Part shown: positions 7,569-16,357 of the stretch, in pieces
Layout: each line of letters starts with the position of its first letter
Numbering within the stretch: position 1 is the first letter of the stretch
Source of the DNA: Candidatus Cloacimonadales bacterium
GTDB taxonomy: Bacteria; Cloacimonadota; Cloacimonadia; Cloacimonadales; JAFGVF01
Direction of reading: 5' to 3'
NCBI GenBank assembly: GCA_963663475.2
Contig: CAXXJV010000001.1
Span: 1,120,001 to 1,184,000 of the forward strand
Length of the DNA: 64,000 nucleotides
Translations under genes and position numbers: made by a program
The notes under the pieces: model-generated
Told to the model about the DNA's origin: nothing
Database searches by the model: none
The model's input: the letters and a program-made list of their open reading frames with translations, nothing else

Positions 7569-8413
7569 GTTTTGAATTAGGCCGTGGATTAGATTCCTTA
7601 ATTTCTAAATTACCTGAATCAACTAATAATGAAACAGGGATAACAACTGTCAAAATAGACTATATTCATCCCAATAAACTCCAACCCAGAAAGCTATTTG
7701 ATCAAGAAAAGCTTGAAGAATTAGCCAATTCAATTAAAGAAAATGGTATAATTCAACCAATAATAGTTACTAAAAGAATGGATGAAGACGGCTATGAATT
7801 AGTTGCTGGAGAAAGACGTTTGGAGGCTTCTAAATTAGCAGGCTTTGATGAGATACCAGTGATTATTCGGTCGATTTCTCCCAAAGAAAAGCTCCTCTAT
7901 GCTATCATAGAAAATGTTCAAAGAGAAGACTTAAATGCCATTGAAGAAGCTTTAGCTTATAATCAGTTGATAGATGATTTTGGTATGTCTCAGGCCCAGG
8001 TAGCTGAAATGATGGGTAAAGATCGTTCTACAATTACTAACACCCTTAGAATGCTTAAGCTTGCCCCACCTGTCCAAAAACTCCTTCTAAATAATGATAT
8101 ATCAGCAGGTCATTGTCGGGCTATTTTACAAGTAGCTCAAGCTGAACAAGAAGATTTTGCCAATATGATCCTGAAAAACTCCTTATCAGTTAGAAAGGCA
8201 GAAGAATTGGCTAAAAATTGGCAAGGAAAAGCTAAGAAAAAACAAGCTGCATTTCAACGGAGAAAAGATGTAGAGGGTATTTTAAAAAATCAACTCAATC
8301 TTAAAATTAAAGTTGAAGAAAAGAATGGTAAGGGTAAGATTGTGATAAATTATTCTAACCAAGAAGAATTAAATAAATTACTTAAATCACTTGAAAGAAA
8401 ACAGCATGTTTAA
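7565..8413 (+). CDS. parB: Chromosome partitioning protein ParB/Spo0J
   Basis: QPRK, GIIQPI, AGERR, ENVQREDL motifs and HTH. Confidence 0.97.
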   Translation: MSFELGRGLDSLISKLPESTNNETGITTVKIDYIHPNKLQPRKLFDQEKLEELANSIKENGIIQPIIVTKRMDEDGYELVAGERRLEASKLAGFDEIPVIIRSISPKEKLLYAIIENVQREDLNAIEEALAYNQLIDDFGMSQAQVAEMMGKDRSTITNTLRMLKLAPPVQKLLLNNDISAGHCRAILQVAQAEQEDFANMILKNSLSVRKAEELAKNWQGKAKKKQAAFQRRKDVEGILKNQLNLKIKVEEKNGKGKIVINYSNQEELNKLLKSLERKQHV

Positions 8414-8639
8414 AAAGTATGAGGGATTTGACCCAAGTTTACTTAAATATCTCAGTCTAATCACCCAGCTGGGACTTTCAATGATTAGTTCAATCGTTAT
8501 TTTTTTATTGATTGGCCGTTGGCTTGATTCCTTACTTGAAACTGAAAATGTATTTTTAATTACAGGTATTATATTAGGTATCCTTAGTGGTATCTTATCA
8601 AATTACATGCTTTTAAAGAAATTTTATGGAAATCAATAA
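8406..8639 (+). CDS. atpZ: AtpZ/AtpI family (ATPase gene 1) membrane protein
   Basis: Two TM helices with GRWLD; first gene of the atp operon; likely ATG at 8406. Confidence 0.8.
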   Translation: MFKKYEGFDPSLLKYLSLITQLGLSMISSIVIFLLIGRWLDSLLETENVFLITGIILGILSGILSNYMLLKKFYGNQ

Positions 8640-9012
8640 ATATATTCTTAGAATTATTAGAATAATTATCTTGACAAATATACCCCTTGTTATATCGATA
8701 TTTATATCTAATAAAGAGTGGGTCAGCTTTAGTTATATTTTAGGTTCAATAGCTAGTGCGGGGAATTTTATCTGGCATAGCTTTGTTGTGCGAAATGCAC
8801 TATCAATGAACGAGAATGCAACTAAACTGCGGGTGGTTAAAGGCTTTTATTTACGCTATGTCGTATTTGTGCTTTATGCCTTTATCATAGCTTTTTTATT
8901 CAGAAATCAGATTGATATTATCTGGTTTGGATTTGGATTATTATCTGCCCAAATCTCTATCTATTTAGATACGATTTGGACTTTAATAAAAAAATACTTA
9001 AGAATCGAGTAA
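8626..9012 (+). CDS. atpI: ATP synthase protein I
   Basis: Four TM helices, FYLRY motif, position before atpB. Confidence 0.8.
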   Translation: MEINKYILRIIRIIILTNIPLVISIFISNKEWVSFSYILGSIASAGNFIWHSFVVRNALSMNENATKLRVVKGFYLRYVVFVLYAFIIAFLFRNQIDIIWFGFGLLSAQISIYLDTIWTLIKKYLRIE

Positions 9013-9015
9013 ACT

Positions 9016-10023
9016 ATGACAAAAAAGAAAATTATTTTAATTGCTTTAGGCATTGTCTTTGTTGTTGAACTTGTTCTATCATTCTATCTAAACTTCAGTA
9101 TAAACTTAGGTACTAACCCTGAAACAGGTAAGTTCGGTATTTATGTTACTGAAGAAGTGGTAGCAATGCAGGATAAAATCAATGAAGAGACTCAACCTGA
9201 TCAGCATTTAATGGATTCTCAAGTAGTAACCAAGTATAAGACTGATAATCCAGACTGGACTATCGCTAATGTTATTGAAAATATTGAATCAAGCCAGGCT
9301 GAGGAAGATTTAGAACACATCAAGGAATATTTACCTTGGGGATCTACTTCCATCTATCTCTTCTTCCATAAATTTCTGGGTGATTCTGCAACTATAAGTG
9401 CAATTCGTATGATTCGCATGATGTTTATAGTTGATCTAATTTTGATAATCTTAGCCTTAATGGTCCGTCGTAAAATTCAGTTTAAACCTGGTAAGCTACA
9501 AGTCGCAACAGAGTGGATTTACGATTCTTTTGAAGGTTTAGTTGGTGAATCCTTAGGGAAGAATAACAAACACTTTACGCCTTATCTCTTAACACTATTC
9601 CTCTTTATCTGGATTAGTAATATGATAGGCTTAATTCCTATTCCAGGAATAAGTGAGCCAACTAGGAATTTGAATGTCACAATCGGTCTTGGTATCATTG
9701 CCATTATAGTCGTACAATACAACGCCATTAAAAAGAAAGGGTTATGGACTCATCTAAAGAGTTTTGCTGAACCTATGTTCTTCTTGGCCCCCCTTAACAT
9801 CATTGGTGAACTTTCCAAAGTAGTTTCCATTGCCTTCCGTCTTTTCGGTAATATAATGGGTGGGGCAATTATTATCTTAGTGGTGTCTGAATTAGTCAAA
9901 TATATCATGGTGCCAATTGTTTTATCAGGCTTCTTTGGACTCTTTGCTGGGTCTGTGCAAGCATTTGTTTTCACAATGTTAGCTATGAGTTACTTGGCAG
10001 TAGAAATTAATTCAGAAGAGTAG
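9016..10023 (+). CDS. atpB: ATP synthase subunit a with N-terminal extension
   Basis: PTRNLNVT, FRLFGNI (essential Arg), VQAFVFTML. Confidence 0.95.
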   Translation: MTKKKIILIALGIVFVVELVLSFYLNFSINLGTNPETGKFGIYVTEEVVAMQDKINEETQPDQHLMDSQVVTKYKTDNPDWTIANVIENIESSQAEEDLEHIKEYLPWGSTSIYLFFHKFLGDSATISAIRMIRMMFIVDLILIILALMVRRKIQFKPGKLQVATEWIYDSFEGLVGESLGKNNKHFTPYLLTLFLFIWISNMIGLIPIPGISEPTRNLNVTIGLGIIAIIVVQYNAIKKKGLWTHLKSFAEPMFFLAPLNIIGELSKVVSIAFRLFGNIMGGAIIILVVSELVKYIMVPIVLSGFFGLFAGSVQAFVFTMLAMSYLAVEINSEE

Positions 10024-10031
10024 GAGGAAAA

Positions 10032-10784
10032 ATGATACAAACAGATAGTTTTTTACTAATCAGTGCCTATTTAGGTGCTGCATTAAGTACAGGATTAGCT
10101 TCCATTAGTGCTGGTATAGGTGAGGGATATGCTGCTGGAGAAGCAGCTAAAGCTCTTGCTAAGCAACCAAAAGCAGGAGATGGACTCTTAAGAACTATGC
10201 TAATTAGTCAAGCTGTTACAGAAACAGGGGCTATTTTTGGTTTAGTTATCTCACTTCTTCTCATTTTTGGTGGAGCAGGCCATATTGCTGGTTCCTGGTT
10301 CAAGGTAGGTGCACTTTTAGCATCTGGTTTGGCAATGGGACTAGGCTCAATAGGTCCTGGTTTTGGTGCTGGCTATACTGGTGGACAGGCCTGTAGTGTG
10401 ATTTCCAGACTTCCAAAAGAATCAAACAGAGTAACCACAAATATGTTAATAGGTCAAGCTTTGGCACAAACTGATGCAATCTTTGCCTTAGTAGTTGCCT
10501 TACTTCTATTATACAGTGTTCCTAATCCAACAGCTTCCACAGGTCTTGGTCATTTTGTTGTGAAGATATCTGCCTTTCTCGGAGCTTCATTAGCAATAGG
10601 ACTAGGTACTTTAGGACCTGGAATGGGAATAGGATTCGTAACAGGCCGAGCCTCTAACATGTTGGGACGTTTTCCTCGAGAAAGGGGAGCAATTTCCAGA
10701 ACAATGTTCTTAGGTGCAGCTGTTTCAGAATCAACTGCTATCTACGCTCTTGTAATAGCATTCTTGTTAATTTTCTTCTCATAA
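10032..10784 (+). CDS. atpE: Triplicated (three-hairpin) ATP synthase c subunit
   Basis: Three c-like repeats: QAVTETGAIF, QALAQTDAIF, AAVSESTAIY. Confidence 0.9.
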   Translation: MIQTDSFLLISAYLGAALSTGLASISAGIGEGYAAGEAAKALAKQPKAGDGLLRTMLISQAVTETGAIFGLVISLLLIFGGAGHIAGSWFKVGALLASGLAMGLGSIGPGFGAGYTGGQACSVISRLPKESNRVTTNMLIGQALAQTDAIFALVVALLLLYSVPNPTASTGLGHFVVKISAFLGASLAIGLGTLGPGMGIGFVTGRASNMLGRFPRERGAISRTMFLGAAVSESTAIYALVIAFLLIFFS

Positions 10785-10834
10785 TGAGAATACAAATATA
10801 AAAATAAAAAAATAAAAAATCCGTTGGAGGAATA

Positions 10835-11080
10835 ATGGATCTTAATCAAGCAATAGTAAAGGCTGCAGCTTTATTAGGCGCAGGAATCGCAATGGGAATT
10901 GGTGCTTTAGGACCAGGATTAGGTGAAGGTTTCACAGCAGGAAAAGCATGTGAAGGTATAGCAAGAACTCCAGAAAACGCAGGTTTAATTACCAGAACAA
11001 TGCTTATCGGTCAGGCTGTGTCTGAATCAACAGGTATTTACTCATTAGTGGTAGCATTATTATTAATATTTACTGCTTAA
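10835..11080 (+). CDS. atpE: ATP synthase subunit c, Na+-binding type
   Basis: GPGLGEG ... [11 protein letters not shown]. Confidence 0.97.
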
Positions 11081-11102
11081 TTCTCAATATATTGGAGAAA
11101 GA

Positions 11103-11582
11103 ATGATTAGTATAGATGTCTCAATGGTAGTAGTTATTTTAAACTTCCTACTCTTAATGTTCATCTTAAAAATGGTATTATATAAACCAATTAAAGATAT
11201 GATTAATGAGAGAGAAAGTAAAGTTGCTGCTGATATTGATGATGCCAATAAATCTAAAGAAGAGGCTAAGAAATTAGTCTTAACCAAAGAAGAAGAGTAC
11301 AAAGAAGCTGTAGTAGAAGCGAGGAAACTACGTGATAAAATCAGAAAAGAAGCTGAATTTGATGCTGAGAAGATTATCCAGCAAGCTTATGAAAATCGCA
11401 AATCTATTGTAGCAGAGACTGAAGAACAGCTTGCCCATGAAAAGCAGAAAGTTCAGCAAAAACTTCAAGCTGAACTAGCTGGTCTTGTCTCACAACTAAC
11501 AGGAAAAGTTTTGGCTCAGAAGATAGATTCTGATAAAGATTTAGAGCTTATAAACTCTATAATTGATAGTCGGAGTGAATAA
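11103..11582 (+). CDS. atpF: ATP synthase subunit b
   Basis: N-terminal TM (NFLLL...YKP) followed by a coiled coil. Confidence 0.95.
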   Translation: MISIDVSMVVVILNFLLLMFILKMVLYKPIKDMINERESKVAADIDDANKSKEEAKKLVLTKEEEYKEAVVEARKLRDKIRKEAEFDAEKIIQQAYENRKSIVAETEEQLAHEKQKVQQKLQAELAGLVSQLTGKVLAQKIDSDKDLELINSIIDSRSE

Positions 11583-12121
11583 TGAAAGATACTAAAACTG
11601 CAGAACGCTACGCTAATGGATTCTTGGCAGCATTTACTAGTAATGATTTGCCTAATTTATTAGAAGAAGTTAGGGTTCTTCAACAAGTATTAAGAGCTAA
11701 TTCAGACATTTCTCGAGTGCTCTCTTCCCATGTTATCAAAGAGAAGGATAAACTACATATTATTGAACCCTTCATAAAAGAATGCAAGCATGGTGATTAT
11801 TGGCAAAACCTAATTATGTTGCTCTCAGAAAAGAATAGATTAAATCTTTTTGATGATATAAACTATTTCTTAGAACAATATATTTTAGATGAATTAAATA
11901 TAGTGAAAATTACAATAAAAACTGCTCATGAACTCAAAGAGGATATGAAAAATAAGATGGTTAACTTCTTATCAGATAAAATTAAGAAGCAGGTTGAAGC
12001 ATCTTTTGTTACTGATCCCCAAGTTCTGGGTGGCTTTATTGCTGAATCAGATAACTTCATTGTCGATTCTTCAGTAAAACGAAGCTTAGAACAGTTCAGA
12101 CTAAGCTTAATTAAAATGTAA
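11582..12121 (+). CDS. atpH: ATP synthase subunit delta
   Basis: AERYA, DPQVLGG, VDSSV motifs. Confidence 0.93.
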
Positions 12122-12131
12122 GGAATTAAAT

Positions 12132-13634
12132 ATGATAAGACCTGAAGAAATTAGTTCAATCATAAGAGATAGAATAAAGAAATTTACCTTAGATCAAGAT
12201 ATAGCTGAAACTGGAAAAGTTATTCAGGTTGGCGATGGTATTGCTCGTGTATATGGCTTAAAAAATGTTATGTACAACGAGATGTTGCTATTCCCTAATG
12301 ATGTTTTTGGTATGGCTCTTAACTTGGAAGAGGATAGCGTTGGTTGTGTTCTCTTTGGTGATACTACTAAAGTTAAAGAAGGCGACATTGCTAAAAGAAC
12401 TAAGAGAATCTTAGAAGTCCCTGTAGGTGAAGCTTTGCTAGGTAGAGTAGTTAACACTCTAGGTCAACCTTTAGATGGTAAAGGTGAAATTAAGCAAACT
12501 GAATTCTATGAAATGGAAAGAAAGGCTCTTGGGGTAATTGCTCGTCAGCCTGTTGTAGAACCACTTCAAACTGGTATCAAGGCTATTGACTCTATGATAC
12601 CTATTGGTAGGGGACAACGTGAATTAATTATTGGTGATAGACAGACTGGTAAAACTGCTATCGCCTTAGATACTATTATTAACCAAAAAGGTAAGGATGT
12701 TTTCTGTATCTATGTAGCAATAGGACAGAAAGAATCTTCAGTTGCTAAATTTGTCAGAACCCTAGAAGAATATGGTGCTATGGAATATACTACTATTGTT
12801 ATGGCTGGTTCAAGTGAACCTCCTTCAATGCAATACATGGCTCCTTATGCAGGTTGTTCAATTGGTGAATACTTTAGAGATAATGGCAAACATGCCTTAA
12901 TTATCTATGATGATCTTTCTAAGCATGCTGTTGCTTACCGTGAAATTTCCCTTCTTTTGAGAAGACCTCCAGGACGTGAAGCTTATCCTGGTGATGTTTT
13001 CTATCTTCACTCAAGATTGTTAGAAAGAGCTTCTAAGCTTAGTGATAAATTAGGAGGCGGTTCTTTAACAGCTTTACCAATTATCGAAACTAAAGCTGAA
13101 GATATCTCTGCTTATATTCCTACTAACGTGATTTCTATCACTGATGGACAAATCTATCTCTCAAGTAGATTATTCTATTCTGGTAGAAGACCTGCTATTA
13201 ATGCTGGTCTATCTGTTTCACGTGTGGGTGGCTCAGCTCAGATTAAAGCTATGAAACAAGTTGTTGGTCAGCTAAGATTCGCTCTAGCTCAATATACTGA
13301 GCTTGAATCATTTGCTAAATTTGGTTCAGACCTTGATAAAGCTACTCTAGCCCAGTTAAGAAGAGGACAGTCTATTGTGGAAATCCTTAAGCAAGGTCAG
13401 TTCTCTCCTCTATCAGTCCAACAGCAAATCATGATTATTTTTATGGCTAATGAAGGCTATTTAGATGAATTTGATGTTGAAAAGATAAGTGAAATTGAAA
13501 AAGAGCTTTATATTACTTTAGATACTGAGTTCAAAGACTTTACCAAAACACTTGCTGATGGTGCCTTAACAGATGACAAAAAAGCTAAGATGGCTGAAAT
13601 CTGTGAGCATGTAGCAGCTAAATTCAGATCTTAA
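12132..13634 (+). CDS. atpA: ATP synthase subunit alpha
   Basis: [28 protein letters not shown]. Confidence 0.99.
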
Positions 13635-13647
13635 GTAGAAGGTTAAG

Positions 13648-16302
<2,655 letters not shown>

Positions 16303-16328: not shown

Positions 16329-16357
16329 AGCTCTCTACTTGGTAGGGAGCTTTTTTT
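16329..16357 (+). terminator. Intrinsic terminator of the atp operon
   Basis: AGCTCTCTAC-ttg-GTAGGGAGCT followed by a T run. Confidence 0.85.

Follow-up and report, generated by a model that had tools for sequence, protein, structure and literature searches.

A three-hairpin c subunit beside a single-hairpin c subunit in an F-type atp operon of Cloacimonadota: a candidate hybrid Na+ rotor

The ion/ATP ratio of a rotary ATP synthase sets the amount of ATP that is gained from a given ion gradient and is generally held to follow from how many c subunits make up the ring. To our knowledge, the only F-type exception that has been studied is of the Acetobacterium woodii type, in which one hairpin in eleven is ion-blind, and we know of no solved F/V hybrid ring other than 4BEM. 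Here, we analyze a stretch of 64,000 nucleotides (nt) from a Candidatus Cloacimonadales bacterium (contig CAXXJV010000001.1, positions 1,120,001 to 1,184,000, forward strand; hereafter, the window) that encodes an F-type atp operon with two adjacent c genes, one for a 250-amino acid (aa) protein with three c hairpins (triple c) and one for a standard 81-aa protein with a single hairpin (single c). From the sequences, models, and distribution of these proteins, we infer that they probably belong to one Na+-coupled F1Fo ring, with a predicted stoichiometry that would lower the ion/ATP ratio.

A c form with three hairpins occurs in the A-type enzyme of the archaeon Methanocaldococcus jannaschii, and c2/c3 fusions of the E. 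coli subunit were reportedly described by Jones and Fillingame in 1998. Archaeal A-type c subunits with 1, 2, 3, or 13 hairpins are described in excerpts of PMC9171764 and bioRxiv 10.64898/2026.10.01.756066 (published work is cited here from such excerpts). The same sources describe the A. woodii ring as nine single hairpins and one c1, and the same gene pair is reported from Clostridium aceticum (PMC7911925). A. woodii is the sole mixed F-type ring named in the excerpted text of bioRxiv 10.64898/2026.10.01.756066, which concerns rotary ATPase evolution. Two Cloacimonadota genome papers (PMC8542988, PMC12590816) mention the F-type enzyme, but not its c subunits, in the excerpts available, and a 2024 c-ring survey is stated to have excluded sequences longer than 250 aa. 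Full-text literature searches, with a 2015 hybrid-rotor review outside their scope, did not bring up any F-type c subunit described as having three or more hairpins. This agrees with the initial annotation of the locus, which knew of no characterized F-type example. The searches also returned no description of other pairs of a multi-hairpin (2-5) F-type c and a single c. Judged from sequence, we read the three-hairpin F-type c insert as what is new here, the hybrid rotor principle itself being known from A. woodii.

Two adjacent c genes in an F-type operon

The c gene pair comprises the following features, given in window positions:

10032..10277, + strand: triple c hairpin 1 (aa 1-82), with Glu31 and Glu64 as a full half-site of two carboxylates; its own +1/+2/+5 residues, counted from the carboxylate position, are Thr-Gly-Phe
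10278..10544, + strand: triple c hairpin 2 (aa 83-171), with Ala113 and Gln146 and with Thr-Asp-Phe at +1/+2/+5; ion-blind
10545..10784, + strand: triple c hairpin 3 (aa 172-250 and stop codon), with Ile200 and Glu233 and with Ser-Thr-Tyr at +1/+2/+5
10785..10834, + strand: A+T-rich spacer of 50 nt, with GGAGG at its end before the single c start
10835..11080, + strand: single-hairpin c, 81 aa (PF00137, E 5.1e-18)

The open reading frame (ORF) at 10032-10784 contains PF00137 (ATP-synt_C) in three separate stretches (E 1.6e-43), which bears out the three hairpins, followed by a standard c gene, of the initial annotation. In a whole-genome profile scan, each triple c hairpin alone was recovered at E 2.7e-15 to 4.7e-14 and the four hairpins of the locus individually at E 2.4e-17 to 4.7e-14; chance is therefore excluded. 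The motifs of triple c are GIGEGY...VTETGAIF in hairpin 1, GFGAGY...LAQTDAIF in hairpin 2, and GMGIGF...VSESTAIY in hairpin 3, so that all of the residues noted in the initial annotation are present. The ion-binding carboxylate is Glu64 in hairpin 1 and Glu233 in hairpin 3. Hairpin 2 has Gln146 instead and is ion-blind because Ala113 and Gln146 leave no carboxylate. Pairwise identity is 40-43% among the three hairpins and 43-56% between them and single c, and their polar loops keep the F-type R/K-x-P motif (KQP, RLP, and RFP), as do all three loops in most homologues.

An AlphaFold2 model of triple c, based on 73 aligned sequences, comprises six long helices in three hairpins (mean pLDDT 94.0, pTM 0.90), the helix number on which the reading of the initial annotation depended. 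The best solved sequence relative is A. woodii c1 (4bem_J, E 5.5e-27), with whose two hairpins the first two hairpins of triple c are collinear, the Glu-to-Gln change in the second included. The same chain is the top Foldseek match of the model (E 2.2e-08, root-mean-square deviation (rmsd) 1.3 A over 163 columns, 38% identity), with V-type proteolipids next. Triple c scores above the cut-offs of three NCBIfam F0F1 subunit C models (NF009999, 156.5 bits against a cut-off of 124; NF005521, 153.5 against 122; NF009998, 153.5 against 116). Two other class assignments were rejected. A V-type K identity falls short in all three models (NF004913, 68.5 against 211; NF011483, 66.6 against 188; NF006219, 59.4 against 108). 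The N-ATPase c model (TIGR03322) gives 126.9 against 130.85 when summed over the three hairpins, and the operon includes delta and follows the canonical F-type order; single c scores 66.5 against the same cut-off.

Single c carries GLGEGF...VSESTGIY, with Glu31...Glu64-Ser-Thr-x-x-Tyr69 forming the two-carboxylate Na+ motif, and its best solved relatives are A. woodii c1/c2 and the c subunits of Fusobacterium nucleatum and Ilyobacter tartaricus. A published rule for Na+ c subunits specifies E/Q in helix 1 and E-[STQ]-[STQ]-x-x-Y in helix 2 (bioRxiv 10.64898/2026.10.01.756066, excerpt). The motif of single c satisfies this rule and predicts Na+ specificity.

A word-indexed search for relatives of triple c scored 8000 candidates and returned 539 at a threshold of E <= 0.001. 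The best 120 of these were parsed: 115 are 242-257 aa and five are 400-406 aa in length, with source names almost all from Cloacimonadota. A three-hairpin ORF is directly followed by a one-hairpin ORF in 67 of 72 species-representative loci, and the other five loci are cut by contig ends. A match to the gene was detected in 126 of 232 Cloacimonadota genomes (assigned to the phylum by record titles) and in 14 of 17 families, and the triple subunit is thus conserved in relatives, a point on which the initial annotation had made its reading depend. An assembly or annotation artefact was rejected on the same counts, the fused frame being intact in the 67 loci and present in the 126 genomes. One record titled Armatimonadota (L023) has a pair that is 66% identical to that of the window and that falls inside Cloacimonadota in the hairpin tree described below, possibly reflecting a binning or labelling issue or a transfer.

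The families without a match are f3 (0/98 genomes), f4 (0/2), and f10 (0/1). In a sample of 26 genomes of f3 (e.g., G004), which is the largest family of the phylum, V_ATPase_I was detected in 25 and the F-type subunit a in none. On these gene matches, the V/A-type enzyme appears to have replaced the hybrid-type F enzyme in this family. This result agrees with the published split of the phylum into an F-type and a V/A-type clade (Clade A / Clade B; PMC12590816, excerpt).

The assembly to which the window belongs totals 3.30 Mb in two contigs and is 99.24% complete. The four hairpins at this locus were its only PF00137 hairpins in the whole-genome scan, and a profile search of the genome did not find the V-type subunit I (V_ATPase_I). 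The F-type enzyme is therefore the only rotary ATPase of the genome and, as such, its triple gene cannot be a spare copy.

In comparisons with same-genus loci, the ratio of nonsynonymous to synonymous substitution rates (dN/dS) lies between 0.04 and 0.06 over the whole triple gene and between 0.03 and 0.09 in the individual hairpins, the ion-blind one included. All three hairpins are under strong purifying selection, and a decaying duplicate was rejected on this basis. Mean column identity is 59% in triple c versus 82% in single c. The faster evolution of triple c, together with the loss of all carboxylates in some lineages (QQQ or GQQ at the carboxylate positions of hairpins 1-3, in 6 of 116 homologues), would suit a protein outside the working rotor, either a scaffold or chaperone of c-ring assembly or a membrane protein that uses the c fold in another role. 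We consider such a function very improbable. The low dN/dS of the whole gene does not favor it, and neither does the retention of R/K-x-P in all three loops of most homologues. Furthermore, Ser-Thr-Tyr in hairpin 3 and Glu31/Glu64 in hairpin 1 are the residues that complete sites with a neighboring c, the fold matches a ring-embedded subunit at an rmsd of 1.3 A, and the operon already has AtpI and an AtpZ-like protein.

The carboxylate pattern of triple c varies among relatives. Among 68 gene pairs, QQE occurs in 31, EQE in 22, EQQ in 7, GQE in 4, EEE in 2, QQQ in 1, and GQQ in 1; the corresponding counts among 116 proteins are EQE 60, QQE 36, EQQ 11, QQQ 4, GQE 2, GQQ 2, and EEE 1. Triple c thus carries from 0 to 3 carboxylates across its relatives, and the number of live sites has changed many times in evolution. 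Single c is near invariant, with Glu...Glu-Ser-Thr-x-x-Tyr complete in 67 of the 68 pairs and Gln at the helix-1 position in the remaining one. The initial annotation suggested that the ion/ATP ratio might be tunable. This holds across lineages, in the sense of 0 to 3 carboxylates, and there is no sign of regulation within one cell. The rare EEE pattern, in which the middle hairpin has Glu (L042, L045, and protein P0002), represents either a reversion or a retained older state.

The gene of single c is also distinct in its synonymous sites. In five non-independent same-genus comparisons, the proportion of synonymous differences (pS) is 0.06-0.24 in single c versus 0.40-0.54 in the adjacent triple c, i.e., 2-6 times lower. 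When the window (10835-11080) is compared with loci L001-L005, the synonymous divergence of single c is far below that of all of its operon neighbors; relative to L003, for example, the synonymous substitution rate (dS) is 0.16 in single c and 0.76-1.28 in a, triple c, b, delta, and alpha.

A tree of individual hairpins, from a quick search in which 10 of 143 inner branches were well supported, groups the hairpins by position and not by protein. First hairpins group together, inner hairpins group together, and the third hairpins of Cloacimonadota group with a support of 95. This grouping across the phylum and the low identities among hairpins hint that the triplication is old and predates the radiation of the phylum, and that the forms with 2 to 5 hairpins possibly descend from a common ancestor.

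Residue pattern and the proposed ring

Described Na+ sites are shared between neighboring hairpins. In I. tartaricus, the site comprises Glu65 and Gln32 from subunit A and Ser66, the Val63 carbonyl, and Tyr70 from subunit B (PMC2359735, PMC3692424), and in the fused subunit of Enterococcus hirae it comprises Glu139 and Gln110 from the second hairpin and Thr64, Leu61, Gln65, and Tyr68 from the first (PMC2359735). It follows from this geometry that each hairpin contributes its +1/+2/+5 residues to the site whose carboxylate belongs to the next hairpin.

Residues were counted in 116 aligned homologues of triple c, with kinship ignored. At +5, Phe is found in hairpins 1 and 2 of 116/116 homologues and Tyr in hairpin 3 of 115/116. 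Hairpin 3 also has Ser at +1 in 116/116 and Thr at +2 in 113/116, and Gln occupies the carboxylate position of hairpin 2 in 115/116. Of the 72 proteins in which hairpin 1 is live, 61 combine Glu31 with Glu64, and Ser31 is found in 41 of the 44 proteins in which hairpin 1 is dead. The Ser-Thr-Tyr of hairpin 3 is kept in all 44 homologues with a carboxylate-less hairpin 1. The hairpin that follows should therefore be a live one, i.e., that of single c, and this count argues for a mixed ring and against rings of triple c alone.

Rings of triple c alone are the core of an alternative in which the operon would provide two kinds of rotor, one a homo-oligomer of triple c (e.g., three or four copies, with 9 or 12 hairpins) and the other a homomeric ring of single c. 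The cell would then have two enzyme populations that differ in ion/ATP ratio and whose proportions might change. An EQE homo-oligomer would be self-consistent, as the Ser-Thr-Tyr of hairpin 3 would complete Glu31/Glu64 of the next copy, and the hairpins keep the loop R/K-x-P motif. However, the Ser-Thr-Tyr of the 44 homologues with a blind hairpin 1 would be purposeless in a homo-oligomer, and the QQQ and GQQ forms could not turn in a ring of their own. Moreover, the two genes are adjacent in one operon in 67 of 72 loci, no terminator-like site is listed between them in a consensus scan, and the multi-hairpin subunit of the one solved precedent (4BEM) sits in a mixed ring. We therefore regard separate triple c rings as improbable, and hold the same view of the two enzyme populations to which they would give rise.

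The third site differs from the other two. Glu233 is conserved in 99 of 116 homologues and is Gln in 17; at the position of its helix-1 partner, 109 homologues have Ile and 6 have Val, and hairpin 2 always offers Phe where Tyr would be expected. With Ile at helix 1 and Phe in place of the donated Tyr, site 3 is without two of its usual partners and is at best atypical; going by its residues, it may not be a normal Na+ site. The absence of a Gln/Glu32-type ligand in hairpin 3 was already part of the initial annotation and matters more than was implied there, given that the donated Tyr is absent as well. The window's own family has Asp instead of Ser at +2 of hairpin 2 (18/116), which places a second acid adjoining Glu233.

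These observations can be combined in a model of the hybrid ring. The 250-aa rotor subunit, made by an old triplication of the c hairpin, would join one ring with the 81-aa c, as A. woodii c1 does with c2/c3, and would probably be the minority component. Site 1 (Glu31/Glu64) would be completed by the preceding single c to give a normal two-carboxylate Na+ site. Site 2 (Ala113/Gln146), served by Thr-Gly-Phe of hairpin 1, would be dead, and site 3 (Ile200/Glu233), served by Thr147, Asp148, and Phe151, would keep its carboxylate in an atypical setting at best. Ser234, Thr235, and Tyr238 of hairpin 3 would in turn complete the normal site of the following single c. Three hairpins of the ring circumference would then carry one or two ions only, and the ion/ATP ratio would fall. 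If a ring size of 11 is assumed from the I. tartaricus, F. nucleatum, and A. woodii rings, arithmetic on this assumption gives 10 or 9 ions per turn for a ring with one EQE triple (3.33 or 3.0 ions/ATP, versus 3.67 for a homomeric ring) and 3.0 or 2.67 ions/ATP for a ring with one QQE triple.

Two features of the genes hint that single c is the abundant partner. The first is that the start of the triple gene hugs the gene of subunit a, a one-copy subunit, while single c is preceded by a spacer with GGAGG. In the window, the stop codon of subunit a lies 8 nt upstream of the triple c start; the median distance from the end of the subunit a gene to the triple c start is 3 nt, and the spacer before single c has a median of 30 nt (68 gene pairs). 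The second is the low synonymous divergence of single c, as expected from codon-use selection in a highly translated gene.

When one triple c was co-folded with four copies of single c, the score was 0.52 (runs 0.51, 0.54, and 0.52), and the best of three controls scored 0.00. Across the runs, at least 96% of contacts are the same, and the partner pLDDT is at least 75. The mark for this score is reached by 116 of 157 solved complexes and by 2 of 215 mismatched pairs; passing scores of 0.60 or under comprise only 18 of the 157 solved complexes and both of the passing mismatches. Collectively, conservation, selection, the match to A. woodii c1, the residue pattern, and a weak co-folding pass favor the hybrid ring put forward in the initial annotation; for membership in the ring and copy number, we infer their likely form from this evidence.

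Several points weigh against a hybrid ring of this kind. The ring size of 11 is carried over from relatives only, and the direction in which sites are shared is carried over by fold homology from a V-type fused subunit to an F-type one. Because the sequences counted are related to one another, the covariation counts suggest more independence than there is. As for co-folding, the pass is weak and may reflect memory of a similar solved complex, namely 4BEM. Metatranscriptome contigs from three runs, at low depth, left bins 10239-10766, which span most of the triple gene, without cover. The QQE and QQQ forms, with two or three adjacent blind hairpins, are hard to fit into rotary models. Finally, a fused c10 ring of Bacillus PS3 with one E56Q hairpin is reported to have made no ATP (PMC8809890, citing Mitome 2004), and ion-blind hairpins are therefore not tolerated as a matter of course. 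Since the PS3 ring fails but the A. woodii enzyme makes ATP, blind hairpins would need an adapted motor.

If triple c is nevertheless in the ring, it becomes testable how a rotary motor steps across adjacent ion-blind hairpins, where an engineered ring with one such hairpin failed, and whether anaerobes near the thermodynamic limit trade ions/ATP in steps of one third. The operon is compact and open to heterologous expression, as has been done for that of A. woodii. A bolder extension, which we offer as a tentative idea, is that triple c is an evolvable gear insert that has been reset many times across the phylum to between 0 and 3 carboxylates with the partner c fixed. It is equally speculative that naturally occurring F-type rotors would then turn with a single ion-blind hairpin or with two, or even three, in a row, which the engineered PS3 ring did not manage with one. 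It is also conceivable, although doubtful, that in the lineage of this genome site 3 (Glu233, Ile200, and the donated Asp148) has been re-invented as either an H+-selective site or a two-carboxylate Na+ site that spans hairpins, because Asp148 puts a second acid beside Glu233; the ring would then contain non-equivalent sites.

Operon and energy metabolism

The c gene pair is part of a complete F-type atp operon at 8391-16302 on the + strand, in which all genes have clear Pfam matches and the order is AtpZ-like, AtpI, a, triple c, c, b, delta, alpha, gamma, beta, and epsilon. The features other than the c genes are as follows:

8391..8639, + strand: AtpZ-like small membrane protein, first gene of the operon (PF09527 ATPase_gene1, E 1.9e-15)
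8626..9012, + strand: AtpI (PF03899 ATP-synt_I, E 6.5e-07)
9016..10023, + strand: Fo subunit a, 335 aa (PF00119, E 1.1e-48, residues 135-327)
11103..11582, + strand: Fo subunit b (PF00430, E 1.6e-19)
11582..12121, + strand: F1 subunit delta (PF00213, E 4.3e-32)
12132..13634, + strand: F1 subunit alpha (PF00006, PF00306, PF02874)
13648..14502, + strand: F1 subunit gamma (PF00231, E 2.4e-91)
14517..15920, + strand: F1 subunit beta (PF00006, PF02874)
15907..16302, + strand: F1 subunit epsilon (PF02823, PF00401)
16329..16351, + strand: terminator-like hairpin with a T run, 3' of epsilon (consensus scan only)

Terminator-like sites numbered 5 in the consensus scan versus 4.1 expected in shuffles. 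The same kind of scan gave 36 promoter-like sites versus 31.8 expected, from which nothing can be inferred. Subunit a has an N-terminal extension of ~125 aa (9016-9420), with a hydrophobic segment and an acidic stretch before the Pfam domain. A long subunit a is usual in the phylum, with a median of 303 aa and a maximum of 471 aa among 68 ORFs, a few of which are cut by contig ends.

The metatranscriptome contigs were mapped on 8391-16302; DNA can occur in RNA libraries, and the depth was low. Within a, b, delta, alpha, beta, and epsilon, some stretches are covered by contigs that have 0 to 3 differences (e.g., 9530-9739 and 11138-11292), and one run has depth in the bin at 9975-10238.

The genome encodes two OAD_beta decarboxylase subunits, two Rnf/Nqr-type clusters, and one membrane pyrophosphatase. 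As gene matches, the Na+ decarboxylase subunits, the Rnf/Nqr-type clusters, and the pyrophosphatase fit a sodium-based energy economy, which has already been proposed for members of the Cloacimonadota (PMC8542988). The source organism appears to be a fermenter, according to excerpted descriptions of the phylum (PMC8542988, PMC12590816).

This setting bears on the direction in which the hybrid ring would work. The same ring might serve mainly as an ATP-driven Na+ pump, in which having fewer sites per turn would let each ATP support a steeper Na+ gradient, as it does in V-type ATPases. For V-type c subunits, it has been argued that a reduced number of sites favors pumping (PMC9171764), one large family of the phylum has a V/A-type ATPase instead (PMC12590816), and the apparent fermentative lifestyle is compatible with such a role. 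On the other hand, the two OAD_beta subunits, the two Rnf/Nqr-type clusters, and the pyrophosphatase are primary Na+ pumps and a potential source of a gradient for synthesis. According to Pfam, the C-terminal helical domain of epsilon is complete, and this domain is linked to the inhibition of ATP hydrolysis. Furthermore, the A. woodii hybrid enzyme and the Eubacterium callanderi enzyme with a V-type c are both reported to synthesize ATP (PMC9171764). A mainly pumping role is thus possible but unlikely. For a synthase with the hybrid ring, the physiological benefit would lie in a lowered ion/ATP ratio.

Comparison with described rotors

A wider search of 1.84 billion cluster representatives gave 1455 matches at E <= 0.001. 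Among the best 150 of these, which were parsed (109-1139 aa), proteins with 2, 3, 4, and 5 hairpins have one common architecture, in which Glu...Glu-[TS]-x-x-Phe marks the first hairpin, Gln-Thr-Pro and a Phe at +5 mark those in between, and [EQ]-Ser-Thr-x-x-Tyr is found in the last. Other pairs of a multi-hairpin F-type c and a single c thus share the architecture of the Cloacimonadota pair and differ from it in hairpin number and host phylum.

Several groups of such proteins are distinct. Nine loci from Desulfobacteraceae and related records (L073-L081) have the order AtpZ-like, a, four-hairpin c (324-325 aa), single c, b, and b', with no F1 genes matched within flanks of up to 5 kb. L081 is an exception in that its four-hairpin gene is divided between two ORFs, one with a single hairpin and one with three. 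The subunit a that adjoins the four-hairpin genes in Desulfobacteraceae is 224-240 aa in length. Five-hairpin proteins of 400-435 aa (P0010, P0079, P0109, P0111, P0114, P0122, P0123, P0127, and P0131) mostly have Glu in the first hairpin only and sometimes in the last as well; in P0122, none of the five hairpins lacks Glu, and Ile/Leu occupies the helix-1 position. The pattern Q..ET, S..QTPF, L..ETPF, S..DTxxY, with Asp for Glu in the last hairpin, recurs in a large class of four-hairpin proteins (P0170-P0267) that are about 315-325 aa in length and share 27-36% identity with triple c. Very long c proteins with many hairpins (P0160, 968 aa; P0183, 1139 aa; P0193, 1042 aa; P0261, 784 aa; P0174, 524 aa) have 6 to 9 matched stretches and recall the 13-hairpin subunit described for Methanopyrus kandleri.

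The closest described system is that of A. woodii and C. aceticum, which likewise have a multi-hairpin c gene directly before a single Na+-type c gene in an F-type operon. Triple c resembles A. woodii c1 in that the carboxylate of hairpin 1 is kept and that of hairpin 2 is Gln, and in that +5 is Phe in the hairpin preceding the dead site and Tyr in the last hairpin. The two subunits differ in size and in sites: c1 has two hairpins (four helices) and one ion site, whereas triple c has three hairpins (six helices) and two carboxylates. In the third hairpin of triple c, Glu is retained and the helix-1 Gln/Glu is replaced by Ile. The single c proteins also differ, with Gln...Glu-Thr in A. woodii and the two-carboxylate type, with Glu at helix 1, in the window. 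In A. woodii, both subunit types are present in one ring at 9:1; for the pair described here, a mixed ring is predicted from the residue pattern and the weak co-folding pass. The number of carboxylates in the fused subunit ranges from 0 to 3 among Cloacimonadota relatives. The larger insert of three hairpins, encoded in 126 of 232 genomes and 14 of 17 families of energy-limited anaerobes, is a phylum-wide trait and not one of a few acetogens.

Single c by itself resembles the subunits of homomeric Na+ rings. It has the same Glu32...Glu65-Ser66-Thr67-x-x-Tyr70 set as the F. nucleatum c11 ring (3ZK1, E 3.3e-22; PMC3692424) and also matches the I. tartaricus c11 ring (1YCE, E 9.1e-22). Those rings are homomeric, and the excerpted publications on them mention no adjoining fused subunit. 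Triple c resembles the archaeal A-type c subunits, as described in excerpts, in its fused hairpins and in having fewer ion sites per hairpin. In contrast to the archaeal A1Ao enzymes, its hairpins are all F-type, its operon includes a, b, delta, and epsilon, and it has a separate single c partner. The single-chain c10 of Bacillus PS3 demonstrates that covalently linked hairpins can build a working F-type ring (PMC8809890). In PS3 the fusion is artificial and one E56Q hairpin abolished synthesis, whereas in Cloacimonadota the blind hairpins are conserved by selection.

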